A stretch of DNA of 64,000 nucleotides, taken from positions 1-64,000 of the forward strand of contig QPGO01000103.1 of the NCBI GenBank assembly GCA_008632985.1. The letters run 5' to 3'. This DNA is from Psammoneis japonica. Taxonomy: Eukaryota. Positions within the stretch are counted from its first letter, which is position 1. The number at the start of each line of letters is the position of its first letter. Below are positions 1 to 60,650 of this stretch, piece by piece. The translations under genes and the position numbers were made by a program. A model generated the notes under the pieces. The model was not told where the DNA came from. It ran no database searches and was given only the letters and a program-made list of their open reading frames with translations.

Positions 1-1196
1 CACTCGCCATTTTCGTGCGAGAACCTCGTGAAAATGGAATTTGCACCAGAGTCTACGTGGCAATGTTTCTGCGGTTTTCGCGCGCAGGATGCAGTGCCCA
101 ATGCACAACGCACAAGACGAAAACGCACAAGACACACAACAACATGCCACACCTCATTAGCAACACCAATCGGCGGTTGTCGAACGTCACATTGCTGCAT
201 TGCCGTCATCACATCATTGCTGATGGTGGACGTGGACACCATGACCAGCCAGCAACCTTCTCTGCCTGGTCAGTTGGGCTGCAACATGGGAGATGCTGAC
301 AGCACGGCCCAAGCCAACAGGGCGGCCACAAGGCTGTGTGAGGCGTTTCGCAATTCGACGGGCAGGCTGCCGACAGCTCAAATGTGTTTTGTCGAAATTG
401 ATGGCGAGAATTTGGAAGCAGAGATGTTTCAATTCTGTTTGTGGATTTCCACCACTCCCATTCCAGCAAACTTTGATGCCAACCTTCAACCCCCGAGGAG
501 TCACAATGCAGACGAGCCCGTCAAGCTGGTGATGGCATCTTCTCTGTCAAAATGCATTGGCAAGGTCATCAAGTTCTTGCGAGAAAAATTTCCAAACCAC
601 CCAGACTTTCAAGGCTTGAGGCCATCAGATGTGCCTGAGTGGTGGAGCAGAATGTGCCCCACTTTTGAAAGAGAGTGCACTCGGCTCCACACGTCTCCAG
701 GCGGTGAACACACATTTGGCAACACTGCCACCCAGCCACTCTGTCAGGACAATCGTCTCTTCCGAGGCAATCAAACCACACCCGGTGATGACATTGGGGC
801 CATGCTTCAGAAGATTGATCTCCTGAGCATTGTCAAAAAGCTTTTCGACAAAGCCACGCTGCTGTGCGACAGGGAAGGAGCCTTGCAGCAGCGATGTTGG
901 CTTGTGATGCTGTGTTTTGCGGTGGGTCGAGGTGGTGAAATTAAGTTCAACAGCTGCATTGATTGGCGATGGCACCCTTTCTTTGAAGTGACAGACACTG
1001 GGTGGGTGGAGCTCAAGCTGCTCCGAAAGCATGCCATGGCAATGGTCCCGCACCGGCTTGAACTCCTCCTGGATTTCTGTCATTGCATGGCAAGCTTTTG
1101 GGCCATGGAAGGTGGCCTGTTTCGTTCTGGTGCAGATGAACAGGCCATTGCCAACTTTGTCTTTCCAGATCTTCACAAGTGCAAGGACAGTCAGGT

Positions 1197-1641
1197 TGCA
1201 ACACACAGCTGCTGACAAGAGTCAATGCATCACGGCGACGTGTCACAGCCTTTAAATGTCACAAAGGGCGTGACAAAATAACCTTTTGTCTGCATGCATG
1301 CTGCATTGTGAATTCACAGCGGAGTGGTTCATCGCAACCATTGGGCAGGAGGCCAGGGGTTCGAAACCCTGAGTGGGAGTTGTCTGCAGCAACGTTGATC
1401 ACTGTCGAACGCGCAAAACTCTGTGCAGTTCTGCATGTTCCTTCGCATGCACCCACACTGTTCCGCCAAAACCGTGCAGTGTCAGTGCACGTCAGCAAAG
1501 AGCCGCGTGGACACGTGATGCATGGGGAGGAGTGCAACACACAGCTGCCAACAAGAGTCAATGTGTCACGGCGACGTGTTGCAGCCTTTAAATGTCACAA
1601 AGGGCATGACAAAATGACCTTTTGTCTGCATGCACACTGCA
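1197..1641 (+). mobile_element. TRIM-like miniature LTR retroelement (445 bp)
   Basis: 109-bp direct repeats at 1197-1305 and 1533-1641, each TG...CA. 4-bp target-site duplication AGGT (1193-1196, 1642-1645). Polypurine tract GGGGAGGAG directly before the 3' repeat. Excision restores the host recombinase frame. Confidence 0.9.
1315..1372 (+). promoter_or_regulatory. tRNA-type RNA Pol III internal promoter-like sequence (A box + B box) inside the TRIM
   Basis: A-box-like CAGCGGAGTGG at 1317-1327 (TAGC.. if a TA>CA change is reversed). B-box GGTTCGAAACC at 1358-1368 within the hairpin CAGGG-GTTCGAAA-CCCTG. Spacing is about 30 bp. Confidence 0.55.
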
Positions 1642-3148
1642 AGGTGACAAAACTTGTCACCAAGATCATTCATGATGATCCACCCGATGATTGTTCCAAA
1701 AATGTTGCAAAGATGTTTTCAGCCAAATCCGGGCGACGTGGCTCCATCACGGAACTCATGGCTCACCCTTCGATTGGGATCAAAGATGTTTGTTGTCATT
1801 CAGGGCACACCACTGGCATGTTGTTGGGTTCCCATGCAGACTGCACTTTGTTTGTGCTGGGACTTGGAGCTGCTGAGGCCCTTTGTCGACATGACAATGT
1901 CGATGTCAACATGCGGGTCCCCCGACTCGAGAGCCTGGGAATGCATGTTGCTGCACAGGTGGAGGAATTGCTGATGAAAACGTTTGTCATTTCAGCACAA
2001 GGATTCAAAGACAAGCAGAGCGGGCTGCACCAAATCCTTCGGACGGGACTTGCATCATTGACAATGTGTCATGTCTGAGTGACCCCAAGAATGCAAGGAC
2101 CACAATGCAGTGGTGACGAAACTTCGCACTGCTGCCAGAAGTGCAAGCATTTCTGATGCCTGATTCCCAGGGATTTCTCCAGACGCTGTTCTTGATGAGT
2201 GGTCCGCCACAATCATGAAAGACTTCCGAGAACGCAATCCAGAAACAGCCCAAGTTGCTCCAGGTGGAGGACAGGCCCAAGTGACAGCGGTTGTCAATCA
2301 ACAGTCAAATGTTCTGTTGGAACCAAGGCAAATGGTGGCAACGCTGTTGCAAGAAAAAGAGTCTGATCGCCGCACTGTTGCCTCATTGCAAATGACCCTG
2401 CACCAGCAACAACACCAAATTCAGGAGCAACAACAAGAACTCCAGGTGTCACGAAGCAAGCTGTCACTGTTGAAAACTCTGCCGGGAGCCAGAGCATCAA
2501 GGCAGCACCCCAGAGAAACCAGCAACGCAGAGGAGAGCAACAAGAGCCCAAGACTAGAAGCGCCCTCACCTGCACAAGCTCCACCAGTCGCAACCGCACC
2601 CAGTGCTGCCGCCGCCGCAACCAGTGCCACCGCCGCCGCCCCACCTGCTGCCGCACCAAACTTTCTTCCAGCAGCTGCAAGAACTTTGACACACAATTCA
2701 GCAGCCAGGGCTGTGGCTGAGAAAAAGGACAACAAGAAAATGATGGTTTCCACGTTGTTGAGAGATTTGTTCAAAGACCGGCAGTTTCACAATGACCCCG
2801 GCTCTTGGAAAAACATCCCAGCTCCACATCACACAAGCGAGAAGTCTCTGCTCAAGCGTGCATTGGAGCTTGTTGAACACGTGGCCCATGAGGAGGACAA
2901 GACAACTCTGGAATCAAAAGAAGTGGACGACAACAACCTGTCTGTGTGCGCAAGGCATCTGGAGGATGGATGCATGGCAAAGATGTTAGAGTTTGAGGGG
3001 GTGAGCCCTGAGGTTCAAAAAACAACTGGGCAGGAAAGGGCAAGACCAAAAGCTTCCTGCTCACCTTGCCCTGGGTGGGCGAGTTCGTGTGCACAAGAAT
3101 GAGCTGAAAAAAATCTTGGACAATGACGAGCCGGGTCCGCCTTTGCAA

Positions 3149-4049
3149 GATCGGCCCAAGCCACCAGAAGGAACTCCTCCCAGACTCGGGTCCAAGAGGC
3201 GGTTTTTTGGAGCCCCCTGAAAATGACAATTGCAGGCATGGCAATGTCGAGGGTGATGTCAGTGGCACACACATTTTGAATTCACCAAAGTGACCCACTT
3301 GTTTGGGCTCTCTTACGATGTGTGTCGGATCGGCCCAAGCCACCTGAAGGAACTCCTCCGGACTCGGGTCCATGAGGCAGTTTTTTGGAGCCCCCTGGAA
3401 AAAGCAATTGCAGGTGTGGCAATGTCGAGGGCAGTGTCAGTGGCAGACACACATTGAATGCACAACAGCAACCTGCTTGTTTGGGCTCTCTTACAATGTG
3501 TGTCGGATCTGCCCAAGCCACCTGAAGGAACTCCTCCAGACTCGGGTCCACAAGGCGGTTGTTTGGAGCCCCCTGAAAACAACAATTGCAGGCATGGCAA
3601 TTTCGAGGGCAATGTCAGCAGTGTGCACATTTTGAATTCACCAAAACAACCTGCTTGTTTGGGCTCTCTTACGATTTATGTCGGATTGGCCCAAGCCACC
3701 TGAAGGAACTCCTCTGGACTCGGGTCCATGAGGTGGTTTTTTGGAGCCCCCTGGAAAAAGCAATTGCAGGTGTGGCAATGTTGAGGGTCATGTTGGTGGC
3801 AGACACACATTGAATGCACAACAGCGACCTGCTTGTTTGGGCTCTCTTGCGACATGTGTTGGATCGGCCCAAGCGCAAGCCACCAGATGGAACTCCTCCC
3901 GGACTCGGGTCCACAAGGCGGTTTTTTGGAGCCCCCTGAAAATGACAATTGAAGGCGTTGCAATGTCAAGGGCAGTGTCAACAGTGTGCACATGTTGAGT
4001 GCACAACAGCGACCCACTTGTTTGGGCTCTCTTGCGACATGTGTCGGAT
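3149..4049. repeat. Tandem array of five ~178-179 bp units with alternating A/B subtypes
   Basis: Units start near 3149, 3328, 3506, 3684 and 3862 (GATCGGCCCAAGCCACC...GTTTGGGCTCTCTT). Confidence 0.95.
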
Positions 4050-7000
4050 GGTGTCATCATGGCCGCCGCTGCTTCGCTCATGTGCGATTTCGTACAACAA
4101 ATTGCTCTAGCCACACAAGGCGTGTGTGCTTTTCGTGCTTCCGCGTGGCAAAGCCGTGCAAAAAGACCCGTGGGTTTTCGCGCTTTCACGCGAAAACGCG
4201 GCTCCGCCGTGAAAACCACGATTTTTCCTGCTCGCACTGGCGCGCCGTCACCCACCCGTCCCAACGCGCCATCGTTCGAAATTGAAAATGGCACACCCGC
4301 ATCTTCTTGCATGCCACGCCATGGTGTGGAAGGGAAAGACACACACATTGTCACATTGGCCGTTGCTTCGTCTGTCTGCCAAACAAGTTGGATCAGTTGG
4401 GATCAAAGTGGTGGGTGGGGTCTGTTGCTGTGCAGATTCACATTCCGGCAGAGTTGTCAGAGAGAAAACACAGGATCAAAGTGAGAGCAAAGAACCCACA
4501 CAAGGCACACAATGCAGCAGCACTGACTGCATGAGCAGCCGCCCCAAGAAAAAACCAGCAATCGGGGCCACATCTGACCAACATGGAAAAAATTTCCAAA
4601 TGAAGCTGACACAGGCTCTGACTGCAGTTGGCGCTGCTGTGGTCATGATGTGCTCTCTCACACATCGACAAAAGCGCAGGTTGGACGAGAAAGGCAGTGC
4701 CCACACTTGTTTGGAGCACCAAAAGTGCCCAATCAACTGTGTGGTCTGGCCACAACATCCCTCTGCCACCTGCCTGTGCTCAGCCCACCACACACATCAG
4801 AGCCCCTGCTGCAACGCCAGAGCCCACATGTTTGCCACCACCACATGCCCCCCTTGCTTCGTTTTCTTGCTGCAAAGATGTGTGCCTTGCTTTGCTCACA
4901 AAGAGAAAAATCACTGAACCCAACCAAACATGTGGAGTGGGTGGCACCAAAAGCTTGTGCACACATGCTTTTGCATGTGTGACAATGGGAAGCTGTGGTG
5001 TGTGATGCTTGAATGAGCGGCTGTGTGCTTTGCCAGCCAAAAAAGTTGCTGTGCAATGGGGCAGGCATCAGATTTGTGAAGTTGGTGTGCAAACAAAACA
5101 GAGCAGTGTGCTTTGTCATGAGATGGAGCAGGCAGGCCTCCTCAGGGTGCATCAACTCCTCTTCATTGTCTTTGTGTCTTTGCCACATCTTCAGAGTGTG
5201 CTGCAAGGTGATCTCCGCATCATTGTCTTCATCTTTCACATCCGTGTGTGTCATCTCATGTGAGGACAGGCATTGTGAAAGTTCACCCACAGCATCAGAT
5301 GACAGACCAACACAAAAGCATTGTCAAAAGATGAGCCTGTGCTGCTTCATCCTCTTGAGATGGAGAAGGGAGCTTGGCTGCAGATTTTTCTGCCACTGCA
5401 CCACTGGTTGTGACACAAGAGAATGCAGCTGCTCACACTCAACAACAACTGGCTCTCGTTGCCCACCTCTTTTAAATCACAATGGTGGGTGCTGGTGCCA
5501 CCACAGCCATTGCTTGCATCTCCTTTGTTGCTGCTGCTCTGGCTGTGCAGATTCATTGTTGTCCCCTTTTTCACTCACAATTTGTGAAGCACCTGCAATG
5601 CAAGTCCACTTGGCGCATCTTAAAAGGACAAATGATGTGATCAAATGACCTCACACCTCAGACAATCATGCGCGCCATTGTCAGAAGGGAGGGGGGCAAA
5701 CACAAGGTTGACAACAAAGTGGGGGGGGACAAAGTTTGGGTGGAAAAATGGTGTGTTTGTTGAATTTCATGGGGAGGGTTGGTGCACTGGCAGAGTGCCA
5801 GGGTGACACATGCATTGGCTGCACTCTTGCATGGTGGCCAACAGAGACCAAACAACCAGCCAAAGTTTCCAAGTTAAGGCCAATGTGAGATTTCAAAATG
5901 TGGTTGACACTGCTGGGACATTGTCGTGAGATGTTGTGAAAAACATTGTGTGAGATTCCACAGCAGCTGGCATGTCTTTTGAAACTAAAAAATCATTGCC
6001 ACCACACACCACAAGTGGCAGATGTGAGGAAACAAAACAAGCAAGTTCCTTGCACAGAAGTGCTTGACAAGCGAAAACAGCAGCATTTTGGCAATGGTGC
6101 AGCACAAAAATGAAAGCCATGCAATGATGTTTTTTTAATGTCTGTGCCATTTTTTTTGTCATTGCAGCCACAAATCAGGGTCATGTGATGATCAAGCAAC
6201 CATGTCTTGCTGAAGCTTGTGGAAAAGCTTTGCAAGACCATGACATGGATGAAATGAAACAATGATGCAATGAGCCAACTTTTTCATTTCATTTTGCTTC
6301 ATTTGCTGCTTGTGTCCTGCCACAAATTTGCACAAACTGTCATTTCTTTTTTCCTGCACACTCAAGCTGCAACAAAGAAAACTTCTGTGACATCATTCTG
6401 GACAAAACACTTGGTGCCCAAAGGCCATTTTGGAGTTCTGAAGGCACTGTTTTGGGAGCTCATTCACAAATGAAATGTTTTTTTTGTTCCTTCATTTTTA
6501 CATTTTTCATGAGCTGGGGCTTGTGACAAACTCTTAAAAAATGTGACATCCAAAGAAAACCAGCTGAAACTCCACATCTTCCTAGAGATTTCTGCTGAAG
6601 GTGTGGCGATGGTTGTTGTTGACCATCGCTGTGTGCAACATGGGAGCAAGAGTTGTTTTCAACTTTGTCATCGCACAACAAGAAGGGGTGCTCTTGCATG
6701 CTGTGCAGCTCACTTCAGAGTGGTGCAGGCCTTTGCTTTCATGTGCTCATGGCTCCACCATGTGAAGTCAGTGCAGCATTGCTCATGACTGACAGCTGAC
6801 AAAGCACACCAGCAGCTCAGACCACCATGCTGCACACATCATTTGGCGGCACCCTGCTGTGTGGCAAAGATTGCGTGATTTGTGAGAAGCGCGCACAGCT
6901 GCAGCTGAATGAAGGAACCCCCTTTTCAGGTGACTCAAGAAGAGGGTGTGCATCCTGTCAATGTGTGGCAGAAAAGGCTTGCAAAGTCCAAGACAGTGTC

Positions 7001-10000
7001 AACAAACTGTTGCCATCAGGCAGCACTGCCACAGACATTTGTTGTGCATGGCTGTTTTTGTGCCAACAGCAAGCATGGTGCACTGGGTGGCAGATCAGCT
7101 GCTGTTGCCTGGTGAAGAAGCAAAAGAGCGCCAAACAAAGTGCTTTTTCAACTTGGCTTCAGCTCTCAGCCAGAAAAGATTGCATGAAGAACAAAAGCTG
7201 TTCCAGGTCATTGGCTGATGGATGCAAAGCAGTGCAAGTGTTGAAAGTGCAGCTGACAAAACCAGCAGCAGCTCTTTGCAGCTGTGCCCTCCTTCATCAT
7301 GATGTTTGCTGGAGACAGACAGCTGTCTGCCTGTGGCTTGATGACAAGCCACCTTGCAGCCATCTTCTCACATCAAACAGCACCTGGCAGGCTGCACTGC
7401 AGCTGGTGAGAAATGAGAAGCACCTGTGAAAATGTGCCAGCTGGGGTTGTTTTTTGTTTCTTGCAACGCCCAAAGAACAAGGTGATTGCTGCCATGACAA
7501 CCACCCTGCTTCTGCTGTTGCTTCCTCTGTCTGGCACTGCCTGCAAGTCTGTCTCATTTTTGAGGTTGCTGTGTCAAGCACTTGATGCAAAAGTCATGAG
7601 AAGCAAAAACCCTTCAAGATGCCAACATGGCAAAGCCTTGCATGGAATTCTGTGCTTGGCAGCTGAAGCAGCAATCATCTTGAAAGAGTTGATGCTGCTC
7701 CTCAATTTGAGATCAGAAGAGTGAGACAAAGAATTGAGGGCATGATCTCAGCTGAAGCAGGAACCAAAATGCTCAAAGAAACAGGGAAGGCAAGACCAGA
7801 AATGTCATTTGACATGATGGTGGCACAGCTTTCAGCAGCAGCTGGTGGCCAACTGTGCAATGCTGGAGGTGCAATGGAGAAGGTGGCAGCAAGGAGAGCA
7901 CCCACTTGGAGCAATGGACAAGTGGCACTGGCATCATGCAGCCAAAATGCTCTGCAGTGCAGCAAGAGAGGGGACAAACAAAATGTGAGTGCCAAAAAGC
8001 AAAGTGCTGCTGTGCCCACCCAGCACAAGCAGCTCAGAACTCTTCACAGAGCAGCGACATGGTGTGAGGTGGGAGGCAAGCAGCTGGTGCTCCAGTGTGA
8101 AAATGTTTGCCAGCAGCCTGGAGAGACAGCACTTGGGTTGGGGCTCAATGCACTGGACAAGAAATGGGAGCATTGGCTCTTGCACATGCATGAAATTTGA
8201 TGCTTTGCTGAATGGCTGTGTGTGTCGTTGTCTCCATGAACACAGAGCTGAGACAAAAGTTTAAATTTTCAAGGATGAACACCATGTCATTTTTCATTCT
8301 TAGAGAGAGGGACATCTGTGACATTCTTGGGCTTCACTGTTTGCCTGCAAAGACTTTGAACAATGACGCCAATGGTTGGGTTGTTTTGTTCAACTCAGAG
8401 GAAACTGCTGATTTGGGGAGATGATCCAGCGTGGGGCAAGAAGATTCTTTCATGCTTTTGAATGATTCAAGGGCTGGCTGCAGGTGATGTGAAGGATTTC
8501 AACAAGTGCATCATGATTGCATCTGGGCCTGGCAACAATGCTGCTAGATCAAAGGAAAGCAACATCTCCAGCAACGCAACCCATGCTGTTGCCGCCAATC
8601 TCAACAGGAAGCAATGCTGTCAATGATGGCATTTTCAAGAAGGTGTCAGAAGGAACACACTCAAAATCTCTTGCACAGTCACCTCCAACCCACACCATTG
8701 TGGGCTGCGCAAGCAACTTCAAGTGGAAAAGCAGGGAACCAGGTGCAAGCATGTGGGTTTGCAAGATGAGAGCTGCCCAAGAACATTTTGTTTGCAGCCC
8801 TCTGTTTCATGTGGCTCCAGGGAGAGAGACATGTGCACTTAACTTTCTTGTCCCTGTGATGGGTTTCATTGACAAGAAAACTCCAAGAATCAGTCAGAGG
8901 ATGCAGATGACTCAGCCCCCAGTTTTGTGCAACACAGTGCAACAACTCTGTGCAAGCTCCAGGGGAGGACAGTTGAGAGCCTGGTTCTTGCCAACAACTT
9001 TGACTGCAAAAAAAAACCAAACCTGATTTAAAGTGCTGTTGCACCTTTGCCCAGCAACACCGGCGCCAGCCAACTCACACCTCCGGCACACCCCAAAATT
9101 GGTGCGGCAGAAGTGCGCGCAATTGGCCTGAATTGGCGTCTCCCTGAGGAGACGCCTGATGGAAACAGTTGGTGCAGAGAACACAACAACACTTGGAGTT
9201 TGCTGCGGCACCACAGAGGACAGTTGCATTTTTGGGAAAAACTCACATGAGAGCCATGAAAGAAGCCAAAAGGAAGTCAAAGGAAGAGTGCCAAACCACT
9301 GGCTGTCGCTCATCAAGGGGGAAACCTCATTCAAACCTTGAAGAAATGAAACAACAGAAAGATCACTGCATGCAACAGAGAGCTTGGTTTGCCAGCAAGC
9401 AAGGGAGGGTTCATCCAAGACTGGGAGACAAGAAACAGGAGCACTTGATGATTCGGCGAGTCAGTCGTCAGGAAAGACATTTTCCATGCGTGGAAACCGC
9501 GCTGGGTCTTGCACAGAAATGCCGGTGCACACAGCAAATGGATGGCAGTCACTTGTTGCCAAAGGGAGGTTTGCACTCACACTTTTGTCAGCTTCACAAC
9601 AGAAGCAGTGCTTTCACCACAAGCAGCGAAGGACTTGATTGGCCAACGGGAACAAAGAGAGTCATTGGAAACGGAAGGGCATGGGGCATGAGAAGCTCGG
9701 AGACTTGACAAAACATTCATTGTTGGGGTTTGCCAAAGCATGTGGAATTTGCACTGAAGTTCTTGGATCCGCAGAAAACAACGAAAATCATGATCAATGT
9801 GCAGCAAACGACCCACAAGGAGTCGACGCCAATCATTCTCCACTTGGTGACGTTGCCAAACATGCTGAAACAAAGGCACACCATTGACAGAAAGGGCCAG
9901 CATGGTCGTGGGAGACCCAGCAAAATGCCATCTGAGAAGGGCAACATCAGCACGAGAGCGTGCGCAGAGACACACTCAGGGTTTCTTGGTGGGCAGCTGC

Positions 10001-11045
10001 CGCAGAATTGCAACAGCTTTGACTGCAGAGACAACTGGGTTCAGGTGGTTCCATCCAGAGTGACAACAAGAAAGGGACTTCATCTCAGAAAGCCAAGATG
10101 CTTGGTGGCATGAAAGCAAAGGGCATGTCACTGGCATTGAGTGAGTTCCTTGGTCACTTTGGGCGTGCAAGAGGGCTCCAATGTGGCTCTCAGACTCCTG
10201 CTGCAAATGACCATGCAAGGCATTGCAGCTGATGACTGTCATTTGCATTGTCTCTGCTTTCAATGTGCAAGGTGTGGCTTTGACAGCATGCCCTGCTGCT
10301 TGTTGCTCAAAGAACAATGAAGCACTGCCTGCCCCCCAGCTGGCATGCCCAGAGTGTGGCACGCCCAAAGAAGAAGCACAAACCGGCATGGCGGGTGTCT
10401 CAGCTTGTGTGGAGCACACAGCAAGAACAAGAGATGATGAACCCGGGGTGCAGAGACAGCACAGCGGTGGAGAGCTCGTCGTTGTGTGAGTGCTTCAAAG
10501 ATGTCTGTCTTCCCTTGCTCAGTTGCGGTCCGCTCCCCCAGCCACAGAGCCTCCTGATGGTGGGCAGGCAGCCAGACTTCAAGGTCATCTCAAATGACTT
10601 GAAATGACTGCAAATGACTCGCTCTGCCTGTTGACAAATCACGAGTCTCGCACATACACATCATCATTAGCATAAAATAGAAATCAACATTTATCGGATA
10701 ACATGTTTTCTTAAATACTGTATGTGTATCGGACTATTGGAAAATGTTCACTCATTTAGTCTATCATTACATTTGAAACTTTTTTACATAGGGAAATTGT
10801 GTTCAACGGATATCCTTAACAAAATGAACAATCTTCGTTCATTAAGCTTATATTACATCTCAACTGCTCTCCAAGAGTCGATCAAAATTTCAAAGACCAC
10901 CGCATGCACCACGCGTACAGTACCGAAGCCACGTTGATTTCTACGTGAGTCGGAGCATCAAGCCGTTGGAGGCACCACGCATTCGCAGAGCGGGACATCA
11001 TCTCTTTTTTCATTCGTTTGCCTCACACACACGACGAGAATCACC

Positions 11046-19170: not shown

Positions 19171-19332
19171 TGCTATGATCTTAACAGTTATAACGCCGCA
19201 ACGACGATGATAAAAAATAAAAATGAAGTAAAGTCGTGGTCTGGCTTGTGCGGGTCGGAGGGAAGTTTGACTCGCCTGTCGCATGTCGCTGTGATGGAAG
19301 CCCGACTTCCCCAACTCTAGCTACTTCTAGTA

Positions 19333-20340
19333 GCCAGAGAGTGCAAGTTTGCACACTGCACACACCGCACACCCGCTCAGGAGCAAGGGAGATCATTTTC
19401 TCAAGCTGCCACATGTGCACTTGTTGCTGACAATGTTCTGAATTTGGTGGTTGCTGGCTGCCCCCCCGGGCCTCCTCTCTTGCACACACAGAGAGAACAG
19501 GAGGAGCAGGCCACTTCAGCCCAGCTGTGTGCCCATGTTCACAGAGCATTTTTCTCTTGTGCAATGGCAGAAAACTCCACTTGCTTCTCTGTGCAACAAT
19601 GGAAAATTCTGGTTTTCTTCTCTTTCTTTTTTCTCAACAATTGCGGCGGGCTCCACTTGCTTTTTTCTCTCTTTTCAACACAGAGAAAATTGGGCTTTTT
19701 CTTGCTCTTCTTTCTTTCTGCAGCACAACAAAAACTTCTGTTTGACATGTGTGTCATGCACACAAACAATGGAAAAAGAAGCTCTCTGCTGCTTGTTTTG
19801 TTTGCCTTTGAGCTGCTCGTCAGCAAAAAAAACCTGAGTGCATGTGCATGCATTGCCACTGCAAATGTTGTGCCATGTGTGGCCCAGCAGTGCACTGAGC
19901 TTTGGGCCAGAGTGCACCCAGCACCGCGAGAAAGCTTGCGCAGTGTGGCTCAGATGGCAATTGAGAAAGGAGAGCGGGCAGCCAAGAGACCCCCCCCCCA
20001 AGAAGGTCTCTAACTTTTGAAAGATGCTGCTGACCCACCAGGCCAGAGACTGGAAAGTTTGCAGATGATGGCAGTTGGCTGGGCAACGGGGCGGTGCACA
20101 ACAACCTGTTTCGAGAGCTTTCTAGAGAAAAGATCGACCCCCACACACAAAGAAGAGCTGCATCAGATCAATGGAACACTGTTGCCTGTCACTGTGGTGC
20201 AATGTTGCAGCAATGTGATGCTTCACACCACCAAGAAAAGCTCCTAGTGTGTAAAAGGCAGTTCCTGCTTGATGCTGCGTGACGCTCCAGCCCAAGACCT
20301 TCCCGCATGTGTGACGAACGCAGGTCCCTGCAGCAACACG
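19333..20340. mobile_element. Small TpA-depleted non-coding island, probable non-autonomous repeat
   Basis: No TA found between 19333 and 20010 and only four in 20011-20340. Flanks are TA-rich. No credible protein and no termini identified. Confidence 0.55.
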
Positions 20341-46385: not shown

Positions 46386-46522
46386 GATGCCCCAGCGTTG
46401 GTATCGATCAGCTACGGTACAACTGGCGCCACACTTACACATAAAAAGTACATCCCCGTGGTTTTTTTATTATTAGCAAGAGTCTATTTGATGGTATGGT
46501 CTTGTAAAGTCTTTTTTGCTGT

Positions 46523-49449: not shown

Positions 49450-52400
49450 ATCCCGTTGCTTCAACAAGACCTCGAATCTCGCATGGTGCAGAGCTCGTGA
49501 ACAGGAGGTGCCCTTTTGACTGTGATCTCTCTGTTTCTCAGTGCTGTCGTCATGACACACCAGTCTGAAAAATCTGGATTGTCTTGCAAAAATGCTTGCC
49601 ACATGAGAGAGGCAGAACCAGGAGCAGCTCCCCCACTTTGTTCTCTTTCTTGTGTCCAGAGTGCTGGGGGCTGGCTGGGAGCAAGGGCCAAAGCTTCTGT
49701 GGCACGCTCCAGCTCTGGGTGGGGCCTCGCACTGCTGAGCTGTGACATCAAGAGTTTTTTGGATCATGCTGCATGTCACACACATGCACATCTGCATGTG
49801 ATCTTCTATGAAATTGTTTCATGCTCCCTGTTTTGCGAAGCCAAAGGCTGCCCATGATTTTCGACACTCGCGAGAATGAAAATGTGGGCTGGGTGACGTG
49901 CCCCAGCTGCACATGAACCAAAACATGCAGAAAAATGACATTGGTGCAATTTTCTCACAGTCTTTGACTTGCAAACAAGCTTTCACCACCAAAAGCATGG
50001 GCTTGTCCAAATTTTGATGTTTTGCAATGCTGGCAAACAAGATTCACGTCAGCATTGCAACATTGTCGTCTTTGTGCAACACATGTTTTTTCATTGCAAC
50101 AAACGAGTTGCAACACAACAGATGTGTTTCACCAAATTTTGAACATTCATGTGCCATTGCTGTTTTGAGGTGCCAACACAAAACATTTGTGTGCACGCTT
50201 CGTTGTGGCAGTCTGCTTGCACAAAATTTTCTGCAATGTGAGCACTGACGTGCAGTCAGCATTGTTTCTGCAGAAAAATTTTATGACGTGCATTCCATGA
50301 AGAATTGAACACCCATGAAAAAATTGTTTGAATGTTCCTTTGCACTCCAACTGGGCATGAAAGCCAGGTGCGCAAGTGTTTTGACAAACAGCTTCAATGC
50401 ACGAAGCTTGCACAAGTTGTGCTCAAAAGGAGGGATCATCATTTTGTGCATCCCCCCGGGCTGGAACATGTTGGGTGTGTTCTTCAATGTCTGCAGAACA
50501 CACCCATGCAAACCATCAACAATGCACTTCAAGTGTGAAGGAGGAGATGTGTTTGCAAAACTGCCTCTTTTTCTGTTGGAGATCACCCACATTTTCGCTG
50601 CTCAACAAATTCACTGCAGAGCTCACATGCAGAATTCTGTGGCTCAAATGTCACACGGAGTCCCACCTGGTGGAGTGGAGCATGTCCTTTGGACACAATG
50701 ACCCAGAGGCCACCAGGTGTGGGGAGCTTGGACAGTGCTTCTCTTTTTGCCACACCCAAGTTTGGCTGCAGTGCTGCTCTCCAGATCTGCAGCAGGGTGT
50801 TGGCAAGTCTGTGATTTGCTGCCCTTTGCAAGTTGTGCCCTGCAGCTGACAAGCAAAGAAAACAATGAGGCAGGGGGGGGGCAGAAGAGAGGCAGGTCTG
50901 CTGGCAGGGCACTTCGTGTCATGTTTCCCAGCAAAAGCATTTCACCTTTCACACCCCCCAACAAACAGGAGGCTGCAGTCTGTCCTGTTGCACACACAAA
51001 CACTTGGAGAGAAGTGAGAGTGGGGCTCAACAGCAAGGGAGAGAGTGGGGAGTGCAGTGCTTCTGCGTGTCTGCAGTGGCTTCAATGGACCATGTGTGTG
51101 CACCCCCTTTTGCATGGTGTGATGTCTGTGGGGTTAATTGCGAAATGTGGCATCATCAGCAATCTCCCTCCATCAAAAAATTTAGCACACAAAAGTGCAA
51201 AGTGCACAAAGTGAAAAACACCGACAACCATGACAAGCACCGTCAGACAAAATGCCATCCCAGAGAGCCAGCTGATGGCCTCCACTTGCCCCTTTCAAGG
51301 AGATGACACAAGACACACCAAAGAGTTGGTGGTTGAAAAGGGGCAAGTGGAGATCAAAGAGTCAAACAAAAAACACAGGATTGCACTGAGAGAGAATTTT
51401 GCTGGATTTCTCCATGGTGTGAGGATGCAGCAAGAGTGGTGGTTCCCAATGAAGACAAGGGAAGCATTGGAAATGGGCAAAGGCCAGCAGAAACACTTGT
51501 TGGCACCTTGCTTGGGGGTTTGAAGTTGACGTCATGCAAGCTCGCAATTGCTGTTCTGGCTGAGACAAAAGGAAAAAGGAGACAACATTGTTGTGAAGCC
51601 GACAAAGTTGAGTGGTTTCTTCCATGAGCACTGCCTGAACAACAAAGTTGTGACAAGGAAATTTGGCACTAAAACAAATGGCAACAAGGTGCACTTTGTC
51701 AGAGTTGGTGGTGATGGTGACAGTGCAAAGGCTTTGGCAACAAAGGACCAGTTTTCCTGGGACAGAGAAGACCAACCAGAAATGCCAAGGTGCCAAGTGA
51801 CCAAGCTGCATCACAAACTCACTGTTGGGGTCAATGAAACTCTGCTGAGCACACTTGAAGAGTTTTGCATGGACAAGAACTTGACAGTTGAAGAGTCTGA
51901 AGGTGAAGAAAAAGATGTGAAAGATGACAATGCCCACGCAAAAATGAAGAAGAACATGAGGCACCCAAACCTGCATCAGCTGTCCCCAAGGAGGAGGAGA
52001 AGCAATCAGAGGAACCAACTTGGGAAGCTCTGGAAATGGAAAAGGGTGTGCCTGTAGATGACACTTGCTTCCCACAGCTGTCCAGGTTTGGCAATGGCAC
52101 AAAGGAGTGGGAGCTGTTGGCATTGGCACAAGATGTTGCAAAGTTCCGACAAGATCAGAGCCAAGATGCCATTGTTGGTGACTGCGATCCAATGCTGTTG
52201 GCGCCAATCCCCAGCACACGGCAAGTGAACTGCAAGAACTTTTGCAAGGGCTGTCAAAAATGGAAATGGCCTCAAAAGGTTCTGGAGCACATGGGAGGTG
52301 GTGCAAAGACCAAAGACAGCAATGCTGCCATCTCATTGGGAGCCGAGTGGCTTTGCCAGTGGCTGGCTGCTGAGCACAAAGTTGAGTTTCTCACAGCGGC

Positions 52401-55400
52401 AAAGGAAGCTGGCACCCCAGTCACACAACAGATGAATCGAACATCTGCAGGTGCCATGTGGAGTCAAGCCAATGTCAACGTCAATCAGCAGAGAACAACA
52501 TTGCAGCATCTCCACTGCCAGCTGGGAAGAAAATTTTTGTGCTGGAGAAGGATGTCCAGTCACTTGGTGATGGATTCATCCCCGCAAGCTGTGGAAAGTG
52601 CCGCTGCAAGAAAGAAGAAGGGAAGACACTGGAAGTCATTGATTGCTGGTCATGCTCTGTTCCAGAGCTGGTGTGCGCTGAAACAAAATTCCAGCTGAAG
52701 AAGAAGCAGATCGCTGCTGCAGAACATGATGGGGAAAAGGAGGAGCTGCCATTGGCCAGTTGCATGACTCATGATGGCAAGGGTTGGGGAATTGTGTGTG
52801 GAGGCAATCATGGAAAAAAGGGGTGGGCTGGTGTTGCCAAACTGTTCACCCACAGTTCATTGCACAGAAGATCTCCAAAGGAAAAAACTGCTCATGTTCA
52901 AGACAGTGAGCAAACAACAAAGGGTGGGTGCAGCACACTCAAGCACATGCAAGCATGCAGTGCACTGAGGACAGCTCTGAAATGCTGGCTGACACAGTCT
53001 CACTTTCCATCAACAAGGGGATGGAAAAGACAGTTTTGTCTTAACTTGTCGGCACGCAACAAGGAGAAGGGACTGGCACAGAGGCCGAGACAAGGCTCAT
53101 CCCCAAGGAGGCGTTTGCTGCATGCACAGTGGAGAAGGAGTCAATCAATGTGTTGCAGCGCAGCACCACAAGTGGTGAAGAAGGCACACCTGTTTCCATT
53201 GTTGGTGAGGCACTTGCTTTGCAGGGTGGGTTTGCAAAATTGTTCTCACCGTGCCCAAGTTCACGATCCACATCACTGGAGACCTCACGTTTTGTGCTGA
53301 TGTCCTTGGGAAGCCCAACTCAAGTGGGCATTGGCGCCACATTTGCCTGCTGAACTGGATGGAATGAAATTAGTGTCAGCATGAAAAAAGAGAGAAATGG
53401 ACAATCAAGAAATTGAAAGCTGTGCTTGAGAAGTTTCTCAACTTGAAAAGCACTGACACAGTCATGGGGGTGTGGGAATCAATGCACTGTGCCAAAGTCA
53501 GTCCTTGCCTGTGTGTTTGTCTGCCTCTTCATGTTGGAATTGAGCTGTTCAACAAGGTGTGGGATGAGTTTGCAGAGTGGATTGATGCCAAGTTAGAGCA
53601 ATTTGATGGTGAAGAGGTTGCAGTGCGGGTCAAGGCATTTGCTGCAAAAAGTGTGCTGGATGCTGCCACAGAGGTGCAAGCTCACACCAAAGATGTCACC
53701 AAGCCAGAAGAGGAGAGGGCAAATGACTTGGGTGAGCAAGCAAAGGCGATGGAGTTGGCAACAGCAATGGTGGAAAAAACAATGCAAGAGTCAAAGACGG
53801 GTGTGAAGAGAAAAAGTCCTCAAATCTTGCAAAGATGCAGTGGCCAAGCTTGAGAAGGATCGTGGGTGGCCAGTTGACAGCACAGCCATGCAGGTTGAGA
53901 TGACTCTGAAGAAGCATGGCATCAACAGGGAGGCGTGCCATGGTGGCAACTTTGACGGTGTGTCACGCCGCAGGTTGGGCACCTCCATTGCTGACATCAT
54001 GCCAGAAACAAGAGAGCAACTGCTTCAAGCCAGAAAGCAATCTGATTTGACTGATGCAGAGGCAAAACAAAAATGTGACATGCACGGGACTCTGCTTGGT
54101 TGGCTGGATGCCTTGTTCTCTTCAATGCAAGCCATCCACCCATTTGACAAATGAGGAGCTTGAGGAAACTGGAAAGTGCGCTGACCTTGTTGCAGAACTT
54201 TGGTTTGAGTTGGGTGTGTTGGTCATGACAAAAATGCACCAGGCATTGGATCATCTTCTTGACCAAGCACGGGATCTTGGCAAAGTTGGTGACAAGTTAA
54301 AACACCACATCGAGGCCGAACATCAAGTGTCTGCAAATGCTGCCAAACTGGCCCAGTGCATCCCAAGGTGCAACCAAAAACATGACTGTCAGCTGTGAAA
54401 TTGTGAAATTGAAGACAACTCAGTCACAATCTTGCAGAAGGAAAAGCTTGCAAAGGGGTGCAAGCAAACTTTGAATCCTGAGCATGAAAAGTCTCACACG
54501 ACAGCTTCAAAAAGGCAAAGGCAGTGAAGACAGAAAAACAAGAGAACTCCAAAGATGGCAAAAGTGCACAACACCAGTGTGGCTTCTTTGCACTCTGCCT
54601 TTCTTCCTTTTGTTTGGATTTTGCAATTGACAATGCACTGAGATGATTGCAGTGCAAAGAAAGTGCACCGCTGTGCTGTGACTGCAGTGTTTTGGTGTCA
54701 AAAAGACATTTTTTGGCTCCAAGCCTTGGATTTGTGAGACATCATCACTGTGTGGAAATGCACACAGAGATTTGGTGCACATCAGGTGAGCACCACATTC
54801 TGCACACAGGGTCCCCGTGCACATGCGTGAAACCATCCTGACTGGCGGGCTTCTTTTGTTGTTGCTGCTGACTGTGAGGACGAGTCATTGTCTGGTTGTG
54901 AAAAGCATGCAAACGTCCATGACTGTGTGCAAAAATGGTGTTGTGCATGTGCACAGACTTCATGTGGAGTTGTCTGTGTCCGGAAGGCTGCACAATTTGC
55001 TCCATGCCAAAAACCTGCCCGAACATGTCACCAAAATCTGGGAGGTCAAGAGAAGAGCAGGGGAACTCTGTGAGCTCTCCAACCTCAGGGCAGCAGGGAG
55101 TGGAGCAAGTGCATGTCATCTCAAGGCTGGATTGTCACTTGGTGGTCAATTTTGTTTGGGGCTTGCAAGCACCCAAAAATCACTCAGATTCGTCACACCA
55201 ACAACAGTGTGCACGTTCACCAAAAATGTGCCCAGCAACAGGTCGAACTTTGTCCATTTGCAAGATGTCATGGAGTGCATGCACAATGAATGCATGCAAG
55301 GGTTTGGGATCTCCAGAGCAACAAAAGCAGATGTGTCTGCAGCCAGTCAAGCACCAGTTGTTGGCCTTTCCTGGAAAGTTGCAGCTTGTCTGTCACCAAC

Positions 55401-58400
55401 AGCCCAATTTTGGCAAAAAACAGCGGTTTGTTGAATGTGACAACTGCGCCCAATGTGACAATTGGCATTTGAAGGTTGATCAGTGCAGCTCATGTGAAGG
55501 TCCAACAGCCCTGATGGGGGCCACACACACAAGTGTTTGGGGGTGCTCAGAGGCATTGCAAAACAACACGGGCAAAGTGCGAGAAAACTGTGAAATCATG
55601 AGCTGTTTAAAAAAACACCGCCAAACAATGATCCAGCCTTGATCCCGCACATTCCTTTGAATCATTCAAGCAGTTGCATGCACTGCCAAGACCAAATGTG
55701 GTGCAAGCTGCAAGTTCCTTTAAAAACAGTCTAAGCAGATGTGTGGCCACAACCATCATAAGAACCTGTCCTGGCTGGATCACACCCATGATCACATGAC
55801 ATCATGCAGCCTTTTTGCTGATGTTGCAGAGTCACACTTGTGAGTGCTTTCCAAACTGAATCATGCAGCACTTTTGTGCATGCCCCAACTCCTTTGTCAA
55901 TGAATGAATGTGCGACCATGTTAATTTCACACATTTCATTGCTGCTGCAGGTTTGATCATTCAACCAGAGCATGAAACCAACTGCATCGATGAAGGCGGA
56001 TTGAAACAGAACAAAAACACACAATGAGAACGGTGCCACCATGACAACAAGAATGCAACCACGGGGCTAAAACAAGCCATGTGAAGGAGACAAATTGATC
56101 ATAAAATCAAACTCATGCATGACTTGTGTGTGGTGAGCAACTTCTTCATTGTGTGAGCATCTGCCTGGAATTGCTTGAGAGAAGGTTCAGCAAATTGCTG
56201 TGCATCATGATGAGACAAGAGTGGTGCGCAAAGCACCTCAACACTGAAAGTTTCTTGCATGTGATCACACCACAGGTTTGTCTTGGATGGGACAAAGCCA
56301 CGCGCACTTTGGTTGCATCAAAAAAGCTGCTTCTGGGTCATTTCGTGTGTTGACCCAGAGGGTGTGATGTGGGGGTGTGACCTCGAGCATGTGTGCACGG
56401 TCATTGGGCTGTGCAGGTGTGTGCACATGTGTGAGGTGCAAGCACAACACATGCAGAATTGGCACTGACTGAGTTGACATGCGGTGGATTTTCCGCCAGT
56501 GCACAATCTACGTGGTCTGCATGGAAGACAAAATTGTGTTGGTCTCTTGTGGTTTCACATGTCATTGAAATTTCTTTGGCCTTGCAGAGATGCACACCCA
56601 AATTCAAAAAAGTGAGGAACACCCCAAAACACATTTTAGAGGATGAACAAAAAAAATTCTGTTTGACGGTCTGAACAGGGTCACCCTGAAGCTCTTCTCA
56701 AATTATTTTCAGCTTCCACAGAGCAAAAAATCCACTGTTGCTGAAAAAGAAGCACCGTCGATAAAATGGACCCCCCAATCCTTCACATGCAAACAGCAGC
56801 ACAACGTCAACACCCAACAACACCATGGCAAGCAATGCAAGTCTCATCCACTGATCTGCTTGCAGGCATTTCCAGAGAAGATCAACACAGTTGGACAACA
56901 TTTGGGCACTGCATTCCTGGGCAAAGTTGGGTTTCTTCTCATTGCTTGTTGTCGTGTCATTTTACAATGTTTTGACCATCGTGCATTTTTGCTTTGAAAC
57001 TTCTGGTTGCACCAACCAACAACAGCTTTTTCTGCAGGGTGTGGCCAGTTGGACAGTCACATTGAACCCAAACGTGTGCAACCAAGTGGCCCCACCCTGG
57101 CTGACCAACATTTCCAGAGGAACAGTGATGTCAGGTGTGGTCAAATGCATGACCCAGTTTGTTTGGAGAGGGTCCAAAGGACAGCTCATTCGAACATGAC
57201 ACAAGCTGGCACTTGTCTTGCACCTGTCCTTTGTGCAGCACACATTGCAGAACTCGCGCGCCACACTGCACAGCAGCCCCACAGTGATGTTCGAAGTTTG
57301 CCCCCACCGACGGAAGTTGAAGCCAATCAGAAGAGCTCAATTCAGGTGCAAATGTGTCAAGACCATCAATTGTTTTTTTTAAATGCACATCATCTTCATT
57401 TGACATTTCATTCCTTTTCTCCCACAGACAGACACCAACTCAACCTCAAATGGGCACAACACACTGATGACTTTGAGTTCACTGACCAGCTCATCCCTCC
57501 ATCCGACTTCAAATTTTCAACCCATTTTCTCTCTCATTCCCTCACTGAAGTTGAGTGCCGCATTGCACATGTTGTTGAGCATGAGCCCTGATGAACAACA
57601 AAAATGAAAGACACCGCCAATCACTTTGGTGGCACCGTGGGCATTCAGTTGCAGAATTGAAAGAACCCAATGAAAAAGGCAAAGAAAAACATGCACTCTC
57701 ATCTTGCTTGCATCAGCACAGGTTCATCATCCCCATCAAGACCAGCCCCAAGGCAAGTTCAATTGAATGTGTTTGGAATGGTTGATGACCAATTTGACAA
57801 TGGAGGGCAGAAACACAAGCAATGCAAACAAGGTCCCACCCACAAAAAGGGCCATGACAAGACCTGCTCCCATTCCAAGCACTGCATGAAGAGTGGGAAT
57901 GCAGTCAAGGTTGAGAAGAAACTCCAAGACCAAGACAACATCAGCCATGAGGTTCTAAATGGGATGAAACACAGTGGCAGAATTTGGGCCCTTCTTTTTT
58001 TTCAGCAGCCAAGAAGCACTGTGGAATCCAAAAATGGCTCTCCACCCAACACAAAGGACCCACCTCCAACTCTGACTGCTGTGACAATGAGCGCCAATGC
58101 CACACCATCCTGCTCAAACACAACCCTCTCTCACCGCAAGTGCTGAAAGAAGAAACAAAAAAGCAGATTCCAAAATTTTCTGCCAACAAGTCATCCTTTC
58201 CAGCAAGCACGCAAGCACTTGTGTTGCTTTCCATGACTTGTGTCTGTCCAGATTCAAGAGCGATTCAAATGACATGAGACATCATGGATCAGAAGCTGCA
58301 ATGGCATCAGAAACAATTTCCTGCTGGGACTCTGTCATTTGCTGTGCCACAAGATGACAAGTCTGTTGCTCCAGATGCTGTGCACTGTGAGATTGAGGGT

Positions 58401-60650
58401 GTCACAATTTGCATCATGTGATGGGAACTCAACAGCATTGACATCGAGTTGACATGCATGGATTGCGGGGGCAAGCTTGCACACCAACAATTTGTTGTCA
58501 CAAGAGACTGTCCACTTGCTCCTGTTTTTGACATCAGAGGACCTGCCGATTGGCTCAGCTCCATGTGGCACAAATGTGAGACAAGTGCAGATTGTCGTGT
58601 CACTGTGATGACAGGCGGCTCCTGCACTCTTTGCTGCTGCACCTGCAAATGGCCTGCCCAGTTGATGTGCAGCATGCCTTGGCAAACAACAGCTTTCATG
58701 TGACAAAGACAACCACATGCTGCATTGATCACATGATGCAGCAACATGGAAATGGCCAGGTGATTTCAGCGTTCCTGCACCAAATGATGGCAGCAGCCTG
58801 CAAGGACATGGAGATGTCCCATTGTTCACAATCAATTGCAGCCAAGTCCAAGTCAACAAAAGCACTTTCAGAGTTTGAAGATTGGACTGGACAATGTGGA
58901 CCAACAGGAGAAAACATTCAGTCAATGTGTGATGCTGTGGCTGACTTGGAATTGACTGAATGTGGTGTCTTGGACAAGATGTGTCACATGCCAGAGATGC
59001 AGTTGGTCGGGAGCAGCACAAGTGTTGCAAGTGACCACACCTTTGATCAGTTGAAGAATTGCTCGAAAACTGAAACATCTGGACTCTTTGCTGTGGGGGT
59101 TGAGACTGGTGAGATTGGTTCTGCCGTTTGTGTTCCATCCTTGGAAACCAAGGACTGTGCTCACGCAGCAGAACAATTTGCAAAGCGGGCTGACATGCAT
59201 CCAAAAGTTCATTTCTCGGATGCTTGGCTGAACAACAAATCGTTCATCTGGAAGGAAACATTTGATTGTGAGATGGGTTGTCATCTTGGATTGTGGCGCT
59301 GGATGAATTGCATCACTCAGACATTGCAGAAGACACATGTTGACTTTGGAAAGGCAGTTTCTGACTTGAAGCTTGCGTGTGACACAGCAAGGAGCTTGAC
59401 AAAGCAAGGGTGGCTGAGGCGTTGGCCTCTGGCAAGCTGAATGGAAAGAAGCACACCCCAGCAAGAGATCCAACAGAGCTCAAGGGGAGCAAGCTGCAGA
59501 AGAATTGTGCTGCAAATGTTTGAAAGTGGGCACTGCCTTTGGAAGAGAGAAACACAAATCTTGATGCATGGTTTCAGAAGTGCAAGCAGTGTGCCGTGTC
59601 ACCTGGGGCACCGCCGGTGCAAGGACGATGCGACCCTGATTCTGGAAAGCCGCTCTTCACCAAGGACACAAAAGATGCTGCAGAGAATGCTGAGAAAAAG
59701 ACAGCACCCAGTCTCTGTGAAGCAACAAGTCAGGACAAGATGCACAGGGTGGTGCTGCCATTGAAACACTCCAAGTCAAAATTGAACACCCACAAATCAA
59801 ATGTTCTTGGAACGGAATCAAGACTCGAAAAGCGCCACGATCTTGTCAAGAATTTTGCAAACACCAGCATGAGATCATCGCTTGCCAATTCTCAATCCTT
59901 GCAAGAGATGTGTGAGCACAACTGTGACATTTGCGAGCACATTAAAATTGATGAAATGACGCCAGAGGAACGTGCAGCGACTCCACATGCATTTCGTGGT
60001 GGGCACTGTTGTCGCTCATTGCAACCACAGCAGGTTGCATTTCATCAATGGGCTTGCAAGGCATGCTGGAGCATCGCATGATGTTCATCACAATGTCAGA
60101 CTGTTGAAGGAAGACGGTGGTGAGTGATTTTTTTCTGAATGTGTGGACCAACTGGTGATGCTTGACATGAAGGCACACGACAAAAGCAAGGACGTCAACC
60201 GGTGTGCCTGCAAACTCTGCGGGGGAGCAGTGCCGAGGTTGCCACATGCCACCCGATCAAATCCATGCACCAAGAGGAGCAATGTAGAATCTATTTTGGA
60301 GCCACCAAAAAAGAAATTGGTGGTGTCAACCGATTTAGAAACACAGCAAGACACAGCTTTGTGCGCTCCAAAATGCCCCCCAGAGCTGTGGAGGCGACAG
60401 CACCACGACCTGCATCCTCGACGCTGACTTCTCCTGTCACAACAGTGCCTCCAGCTTCCCTGCTTCAGTTCAATCCATTTGTTGTACCGTTGGGGTTTGT
60501 CATGCCACCAAACAACCAGGCAATGCTGCCGCCGATCAACAGTTTCTGTTGTTTCAAAGCAGCTGGTGCTTTCCATTGGTCCAAGCAAAACATTTTGGGC
60601 ACTGCAATGCGAGGAAGGGTCCCTCATGACCATTGGTGTATGTTTAAGCA
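49450..60650. other. TpA-depleted, TpG/CpA-enriched transposon-rich domain (right block)
   Basis: About 30 TA seen by eye in ~11.2 kb. CpG is also scarce. ORFs are Tyr-free and Cys/His-rich. TA is frequent on both flanks (ccttaaataa ~49425; ttttaaagtagtttatg ~60655). Confidence 0.93.
51230..54560 (+). mobile_element. Decayed Transib/RAG1/Chapaev-like DDE transposase
   Basis: Ordered motifs across broken frames: GG(N)HGK (~52800), ITGDLTF(C)ADVLGKPNSSGHW-R-HIC (~53270-53350), PLHVGIELFNKV (~53525), GINREA(C)HGGNFDG..RRRL (~53920-53975), TKMHQALDHL...G..G.....IEAEHQ (~54225-54330). Confidence 0.72.

Follow-up and report, generated by a model that had tools for sequence, protein, structure and literature searches.

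Flanks of surviving TpA dinucleotides in two eroded repeat domains of Psammoneis japonica suggest a TpA-directed hypermutation process with a graded preference for TAY targets

We analyzed a 64-kb stretch of DNA from Psammoneis japonica (GenBank assembly GCA_008632985.1, contig QPGO01000103.1, positions 1 to 64,000; hereafter, the window), which has a G+C content of ∼48% and contains two domains almost emptied of the dinucleotide TpA. The observed/expected ratio (O/E) of TpA is 0.04 in these two domains (1-10654 and 49450-60284) compared to 0.58 outside. In 1-kb windows, the ratio lies between 0.00 and 0.09 across 1-10000 and 50001-60000, giving 10 consecutive TpA-poor windows in each block, and between 0.25 and 1.09 elsewhere; the CpG O/E of the depleted 1-kb windows is down to 0.03-0.65. 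The left domain, which extends past the start of the window, has its final TpA at 9029, and dense TpA resumes abruptly at 10655. The right domain also starts abruptly, with dense TpA ending at 49449 and depletion from 49450, and dense TpA is found again from 60639, after a partly depleted edge. Genes are densely packed in the rest of the window, with long open frames containing the ordinary eukaryotic LMBR1, cyclophilin, UCH, Fam20C, UDPGT, WLM, WW, and DUF1350 domains. The domains and the edge are as follows.

1..10654, no strand assigned: left TpA-erased domain; 27 TpA in 10.65 kb; O/E of 0.04 for TpA, 0.38 for CpG, 1.79 for TG, and 1.71 for CA
49450..60284, no strand assigned: right TpA-erased domain; 25 TpA in 10.8 kb; O/E of 0.03 for TpA, 0.26 for CpG, 1.89 for TG, and 1.77 for CA
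60285..60638, no strand assigned: partly depleted right edge (∼350 bp); 4 TpA in 354 bp (gTAg, cTAt, tTAg, and gTAc)

No similarity between the left and right blocks was found with blastn at a word size of 9, and since they share no sequence, they serve as independent replicates. Per kilobase, TA falls from 39.0 in the background to 2.4 in the domains and CG from 55.0 to 19.6, while TG plus CA rises from 148.9 to 222.7. The losses of TpA (36.6 per kb) and CpG (35.4 per kb) add up to 72.0, the gain of TpG and CpA is 73.8, and the total of pyrimidine-purine (YR) steps is unchanged in the domains. This unchanged total indicates that both self-complementary YR steps, TpA and CpG, were converted by transitions. 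TpA is 16-fold lower in the domains and CpA is up, with G+C unchanged (∼0.47 to 0.50); with both domains pooled, the O/E is 1.84 for TG and 1.74 for CA. The gains of TG and CA are about equal (33.3 and 40.5 per kb, with a strand asymmetry within ±0.19 in every kilobase), so both strands were hit, which argues against RNA editing passed on via retrotransposition.

Repeat copies show the same transitions one site at a time. The left domain contains a short tandem array.

3149..4049, no strand assigned: tandem array of a 178-bp unit in 5 copies, each copy mutated independently

In the alignment of these copies, 35 of the 62 variable columns are pure transitions, and TG and CA alternate at the same dinucleotide; one site reads TTAC in copies 1 to 3 and TTGC in copies 4 and 5. 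At 9 listed sites, TG or CA in the window corresponds to CG in contigs of run X1 paralogous to the right block, and these contigs also have 5 TG-to-CA doublets. The changes are mutational and were made after the copies arose. Run X1 may be the window's own assembly sample and is not counted as independent.

The first-pass annotation had claimed that the TpA sites left in the depleted DNA are mostly YTAR (Y, pyrimidine; R, purine), with RTAY nearly absent, implying a target preference for TAY on both strands. Its list was accurate: all 17 right-block sites carry the tetramer given for them (8 TTAA, 5 TTAG, and 4 CTAA), and its 5 TTTAAA and 3 CTAG sites are present in the left block, two of the CTAG positions being one base off. 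Altogether, 52 TpA survive in the domains, 35 as YTAR, 16 in mixed contexts (YTAY or RTAR), and 1 as RTAY, so that RTAY is indeed almost missing. The left block contributes 27 sites (19 YTAR, 7 mixed, and 1 RTAY) and the right block 25 (16, 9, and 0), the nine non-YTAR sites of the latter lying at 49807, 50282, 52055, 55759, 56102, 56509, 56704, 56762, and 56963. The four TpA of the partly depleted edge are divided 1, 2, and 1.

We compared this distribution with three expectations for YTAR, mixed, and RTAY sites. From the NTAN shares of the background, 8.2, 28.3, and 15.4 sites would be expected (χ2 of 106, P = 9e-24), and from the contexts of TG and CA within the domains, 11.2, 27.3, and 13.5 (P = 3e-15). 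The expectation from the domains' own flanking dinucleotides comes closest (16.4, 25.7, and 9.9), and the excess of YTAR remains after this correction for composition (P = 7e-8), so the survivors do not simply mirror the background. TTAA accounts for 19 of the 52 survivors and keeps 0.56 of its background density, followed by TTAG (0.22), CTAA (0.16), and CTAG (0.12), with all other tetramers at 0.09 or below; TTA or TAA is present in 43 of the 52. Five survivors are not independent, namely, tTAc at 3314, 3492, and 3670 in the tandem copies and TTTAAA at 1253 and 1589 in a 115-bp duplicate. Collapsing the duplicated sites gives 34 YTAR, 14 mixed, and 1 RTAY, and the result stands.

A bias of survivors toward YTAR follows if the two strands are hit independently at a rate that depends on the 3' base. 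We described this with a Poisson removal model: one event, on whichever strand, removes a TpA, and its hazard depends on nothing but the 3' neighbour of that strand's target A. The starting state was either the background tetramer densities or, alternatively, plain base composition. The cumulative hazards are 2.87 for TAT, 2.56 for TAC, 1.23 for TAG, and 0.31 for TAA, and the model fits the 16 tetramers well (deviance of 11.6 on 12 degrees of freedom, P = 0.48). The data reject a uniform hazard, with a likelihood ratio test statistic of 94.8 from the background start (P = 2e-20) and 65.1 from the base composition start, which ranks the four hazards in the same order. Beyond the first flanking base, survivors with TAA have A at +2 in 33 cases compared to 21.7 expected (P = 0.008) and are enriched in A/T at +3 (P = 7e-4).

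The products provide a test that is independent of the survivors, since former YTAY and RTAR sites should have become YTGY or RCAR if the target with a 3' pyrimidine was hit and YCAY or RTGR otherwise. The hazards predict gains of ∼26 and ∼14 per kb for these two classes, and 20 each would be expected without a preference. The observed gains are 26.7 and 10.9 per kb, a ratio of 2.4 (27.9 and 11.5 in the left block; 25.5 and 10.3 in the right block), corresponding to excess counts over the background of 586 and 229. The ratio of the first class to the second is 1.35 to 1.69 in 8 of 8 wholly internal 2.5-kb domain segments compared to 0.95 to 1.31 in 5 background segments, and the Y-side product is ahead in 8 of 8 Y-versus-R comparisons (four pairings in two blocks). 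Two lines of sequence evidence in two unrelated blocks thus support a TAY target preference graded Y > G > A. The preference proposed in the first-pass annotation is borne out by both the removal model and the product asymmetry, but as a gradation rather than a plain TAY rule and with TTTAAA undepleted.

CpG is lost from the same domains, with an O/E of 0.33 compared to 0.96 outside and a matching gain of TG and CA. Sub-blocks differ widely in CpG O/E (0.11 to 0.55) but hardly in TpA O/E (0.01 to 0.05), which marks CpG decay as a separate process, uncoupled from TpA loss within one domain. The two halves of the left domain illustrate this variation, with a CpG O/E of 0.55 in 1-5000 and 0.11 in 5001-9000 and a TpA O/E of 0.05 and 0.04, respectively. 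The flank effect on CpG is mild, with a hazard of 0.26 for GCG compared to 0.56 to 0.67 for the others. That the two decays are found together suggests two silencing-linked mutation processes with common targeting.

Judged from sequence and contig depth, both domains appear to be repeated, transposon-derived DNA. The left block carries the gene of a mobile element.

238..3048, + strand: dead tyrosine-recombinase-like (Crypton-like) mobile-element gene for a protein of ∼800 aa, split into three frame pieces and interrupted over 440 bp at 1200-1641

tblastn with 6 family members covers 238-1200, 1632-2084, and 2089-3048, and 347 relatives were found at an E value of ≤0.001 in a library of 1.84 billion proteins, the best with 61% identity. 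Six columns are invariant in 15 relatives (R234, K263, H285, R375, H378, and Y387). The top Foldseek rows for the modelled family member P0008 are Cre, XerH, Flp, and lambda integrase, all of them weak matches (E values of at least 0.018; target TM of 0.35 to 0.43). No Pfam family was found in any of 11 family members tested, a PDB sequence profile of the family gave only coiled-coil noise, and metagenome contig scans with the window's recombinase frame and relative P0002 gave no match. We assign the gene with moderate confidence to a Crypton-like tyrosine recombinase element.

DNA without TpA cannot encode tyrosine. The window copy has no tyrosine in 404 residues compared to 2.3 to 4.1% in 20 relatives, and a tyrosine recombinase in this state is necessarily dead, so that the erosion must have followed the insertion. 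At the 24 codons that stand opposite a tyrosine in at least 3 of 12 relatives, the window has TGY at 7, CAY at 4, phenylalanine at 6, another residue at 7, and tyrosine at none; the three best-conserved tyrosine positions now read TGC, TGT, and CAT, and the putative nucleophile position is now a histidine. The last open piece ends at 3100-3102, where there is no TpA (the nearest are at 2987 and 3314), and its stop codon is therefore TGA.

Two further observations concern this gene. The 440-bp interruption is bracketed by a 115-bp direct duplicate (1197-1311 and 1533-1647; 90% identity), which may reflect either an internal duplication or an insertion that produced a long target duplication. 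Among the relatives of 238-1212, the near-identical members P0001, P0151, and P0152 of the cluster of a 61%-identical relative differ by H/Y, Y/C, H/C, I/M, V/A, R/H, and R/W, differences that read as the protein-level trace of transitions at TpA and CpG, still in progress in copies on other contigs that are less eroded.

In the right block, the contig depth summed over run X1 is 74 to 13207 compared to ∼60 in the single-copy flanks, and this large excess identifies the block as repeated. Three features were delimited within it.

49450..50670, no strand assigned: leftmost, high-copy repeat of the right domain; depth of 13207 and 6770 in the bins of 49337-50670 compared to ∼60
55340..57340, no strand assigned: middle-copy repeat; depth of 815 to 1057; 12 of the 25 right-block survivors
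58580..59437, + strand: 286-aa open frame, transposase-like by a protein-atlas lead only

By depth, about a hundred or more copies' worth lie over 49337-50670 and ∼15 over 55340-57340. The TpA within 55608-56963 are 7 YTAR and 5 mixed sites, and the middle-copy repeat was possibly less exposed. For the 286-aa frame, the atlas ranks unnamed eukaryotic clusters first (0.94 and 0.91), DUF6729 fourth (0.88), and MULE 30th (0.79), a weak lead toward a transposase-like protein; the frame has no sequence relatives among longer proteins and no Pfam family. A protein homologue search with two right-block frames found no match, and none of 20 short pairs in the right block made convincing terminal inverted repeats. 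Pfam searches of 145 stop-to-stop frames of ≥80 aa from both blocks gave no family at an E value of ≤0.001, with two matches under the cutoff (E values of 0.0012 and 0.0079), and 10 long frames likewise gave no family above the cutoff.

We consider it probable that these observations are best explained by TpA hypermutation with a 3'-flank rule, acting on repeated, transposon-derived DNA and of the type described in the alga Bigelowiella natans. A process acting on both strands of DNA would turn TpA into TpG or CpA (A:T to G:C) and would have come near completion in both domains, while a second, separable decay would turn CpG into TpG or CpA in the same DNA. Hits on the two strands would be independent of each other, and their rate would depend mainly on the 3' neighbour of the target A, with TAC and TAT hit ∼8 to 9 times faster than TAA and ∼2 times faster than TAG and with the TA of TTTAAA practically immune, so that a TpA would survive only where neither strand offers a good target. 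Of these elements, the sequence itself shows the direction and kind of change, its timing after copying, the flank rule, and the product asymmetry that goes with it, whereas the agent is inferred: it would be a sequence-selective enzyme, most likely a TadA/ADAT-type adenine deaminase working on DNA and aimed at silenced or foreign DNA. More tentatively, and with considerable doubt on our side, a single DNA adenine deaminase may serve as a heritable genome defence, reading T-A-Y as TadA reads the U-A-C of a tRNA loop. If so, the footprint TAC = TAT > TAG > TAA, with TTTAAA immune, would be a specificity unreported for any natural DNA-editing enzyme; it would predict the enzyme to look for, and a mobile element could evade it if all of its TpA were retained in YTAR contexts.

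Several points weigh against this explanation. The gene-dense flanking DNA is a stand-in for the ancestral composition in both the survival ratios and the product gains. Survivors number only 52, including the 5 within internal duplicates, and neither TAC and TAT nor TAG and TAA can be told apart by their products. In the recombinase-like gene, the split between cysteine and histidine at former tyrosine codons follows the preceding base in the predicted direction, but the numbers are tiny (histidine in 3 of 4 cases after a purine). No new mutation was seen in the orthologous X1 contigs, which are 0 to 1 bases off the right block. As far as the sources at hand describe them, no known DNA-active relative of these deaminases has been shown to read T-A-Y. 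TTTAAA, finally, is more frequent in the domains than outside.

Motif starts at 1251, 1587, 5471, 8260, 9027, 55606, 55719, and 57378: TTTAAA, mostly as TTTAAAT

The 8 copies compare to 3.1 expected from the background (2.6 times the density; Poisson P = 0.014), and for TTTAAAT 6 copies compare to 1.0 expected (5.8 times the density). Removal alone does not explain such an excess, and some survivors may therefore be functional motifs or later creations. The motif may be either an immune context common in these elements or a functional motif.

The target could also be the thymine of R-T-A, oxidised or otherwise modified and read as C, with the same flank rule. A change of A to G at TAY is a change of T to C at RTA on the other strand, all counts are strand-symmetric, and the sequence cannot discriminate between the two. 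An oxidised thymine, 5-formyluracil, is able to mispair with G. We nevertheless regard a thymine target as unlikely, given that adenine deamination by an ADAT2-like protein is, in the published text available, the only proposal made for such hypermutation.

It is quite improbable that an unbiased process erased every TpA and that those now present arose afterward through ordinary C-to-T changes favouring certain contexts, such as TCA. The presence of TTA or TAA in 43 of the 52 survivors is what C-to-T at TCA would give, and a creation-only model (C-to-T at NCA, 4 parameters) yields a deviance of 23.2 on 12 degrees of freedom (P = 0.026), which is not absurd and counts as a further point against removal. 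At an equal number of parameters, however, this model is worse than removal (negative log-likelihood of -37.8 compared to -43.6), it underpredicts TTAA (10.9 compared to 19), and it leaves the product asymmetry of both blocks unexplained. Retention is also simpler than creation for the site that reads TTAC in three tandem copies and TTGC in two.

Selection for signals, with TTTAAA(T) or the stop codons TAA and TAG kept as functional sequences, would account for the 2.6-fold and 5.8-fold densities of TTTAAA and TTTAAAT and for the fact that TAR is the set of these stop codons. We think it very improbable as the source of the pattern, however, since the sole recognizable gene is dead, with no tyrosine and a histidine at the nucleophile position, and its stop is TGA, and since the product asymmetry would not be expected from selection acting on the survivors.

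An unusual original composition of the blocks, or sequencing or assembly error at modified bases, gains some room from the lack of an ancestral sequence and from the possible identity of run X1 with the window's own sample, but it is hardly credible: 19 TTAA at average survival would need an ancestral TTAA density exceeding the whole inferred TpA pool (∼39 per kb), the flank-corrected test still gives P = 7e-8, contigs of ∼60× depth match the window with 0 to 1 differences, the copies differ exactly at TG/CA sites, and two unrelated blocks agree.

Outside the two domains, a single TpA-free run of ≥300 bp is found.

19331..20011, no strand assigned: TpA-free 680-bp island in gene-dense DNA

The island is also low in CpG, and the next TpA after it, cTAa at 20011 and cTAg at 20122, are both YTAR. 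It looks like a short repeat insertion given the same treatment, in which case targeting could be as narrow as ∼0.7 kb. The single-copy flank at 44001-48997 has 4 differences from run X1, none of them at TpA, and thus gives no sign of ordinary DNA being hit. The 450 bp adjoining the right domain (48998-49446) differ from an X1 contig by 10 substitutions, 2 of them at TpA, and 5 small indels; this segment is a locally divergent allele or a strain difference beside the repeat block.

In the background, two adjacent 375-aa frames at 38146-40372 (+ strand) have several WW domains each, with internal repeats that are 72 to 75% identical, and form a tandemly repeated WW-domain gene region. The nearest protein-atlas neighbours of a UCH-domain frame at 15624-17090 (- strand) are Nucleocytoviricota giant-virus clusters (0.90, a weak match), and the genes of the background have few introns and considerable length, with a TpA O/E of 0.58. 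A virus might therefore be the source of the background DNA itself, although none of its genes was recognized as a viral hallmark, and viral contig scans with one background frame and one right-block frame gave no match.

Fungal repeat-induced point mutation (RIP) resembles what we find in being a heritable transition hypermutation limited to repeated or foreign DNA, with sharp edges, dinucleotide specificity, and the death of transposon genes. We rejected RIP itself because it makes TpA from CpA and raises TpA and A+T, whereas here TpA is down 16-fold and CpA up at constant G+C. Decay of CpG through methylation and deamination shares the loss of CpG with a gain of TG and CA in repeats, the CG being kept in paralogous contigs, but it would leave half of the change in the domains unaccounted for.

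ADAR has a preference for a 3' G. The bacterial enzyme TadA has U-A-C-G as its natural site, and the tRNA set of eukaryotic ADAT2/3 has G, A, or C after A34 and is not known to include U. ADAR-type editing changes A to G with a 5' U or T neighbour (bioRxiv 10.64898/2026.01.13.699255), as here. Its fixation via RNA was rejected since both strands are hit about equally and the TAG hazard (1.23) is below those of TAC and TAT (2.56 and 2.87). Unlike editing fixed by retrotransposition, moreover, the sole identifiable element here is of the recombinase type and not a retroelement. With TadA, the domains share a target A preceded by T (absolute here) and a favoured 3' C; unlike the U-A-C-G site, a 3' T is favoured as much as a 3' C, and +2 is unreadable because CpG also decays. 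The first-pass annotation had treated a 5' T preference of TadA-derived DNA editors as established, which is only partly backed: according to the portion of the source consulted, the adenine base editors (ABE) ABE7.10, ABEmax, and ABE8e have a broad adenine context, and the 5' T restriction applies to cytosine (PMC10354150). The same source describes a DNA-active amphioxus ADAT2 that prefers GAA for adenine and TCG for cytosine. The flank rule therefore discriminates among candidates, as the ADAR-like 3' G and the ADAT2 GAA preferences both mismatch it.

The closest known system is that of B. natans, which the first-pass annotation did not take into account, and in our literature searches, besides papers on fungal RIP, only the preprint describing it reports a TpA-erasing hypermutation. 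In mutation accumulation lines, 231 single-nucleotide mutations were found in integrated giant-virus and virophage regions, 230 of them A:T to G:C and all of those at TpA, with a rate in hypermutable regions ∼1000-fold above that of the rest of the genome; in some of the lines, de novo events reached ∼1e-7 per site and generation (Mettrop et al., bioRxiv 10.64898/2026.01.13.699255). The genome also contains 124 TpA-depleted clusters that are enriched in CpA and TpG and rich in unannotatable and transposon-like genes, and an ADAT2-like adenine deaminase was proposed as the agent (bioRxiv 10.64898/2026.01.13.699255). As in B. natans, TpA becomes TpG or CpA on either strand, and clusters poor in TpA and rich in CpA and TpG cover foreign or transposon-like, often unannotatable DNA; the two domains of the window combine all three signatures, namely, TpA transitions to TpG or CpA, TpA depletion with TG/CA enrichment, and transposon-like repeats as targets.

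Relative to the preprint's description, three differences stand out. Erosion is deeper, with an O/E of 0.04 compared to a ρ of 0.45 in the nucleocytoplasmic large DNA virus (NCLDV) region of B. natans; the targets are multicopy repeats, whereas that region is single copy; and the domains add CpG decay and the 3'-flank rule. In the main text of the preprint, 'CpG,' 'context,' 'flank,' and 'trinucleotide' do not occur, and a figure legend has 'specific mutation motif' (bioRxiv 10.64898/2026.01.13.699255). Because it is read from targets whose erosion is complete, a quantitative flank rule of this kind amounts to a biochemical fingerprint that can be compared with the published de novo mutations, and it gives a way to date such domains and to detect them in other genomes. 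TpA-directed hypermutation of foreign DNA has been reported only in this 2026 preprint, in which, as far as its text goes, the agent is still a proposal. Set beside that account, the hypermutation process in P. japonica looks like one that is already known, and the flank rule together with the near-immunity of TTTAAA looks like the new detail.

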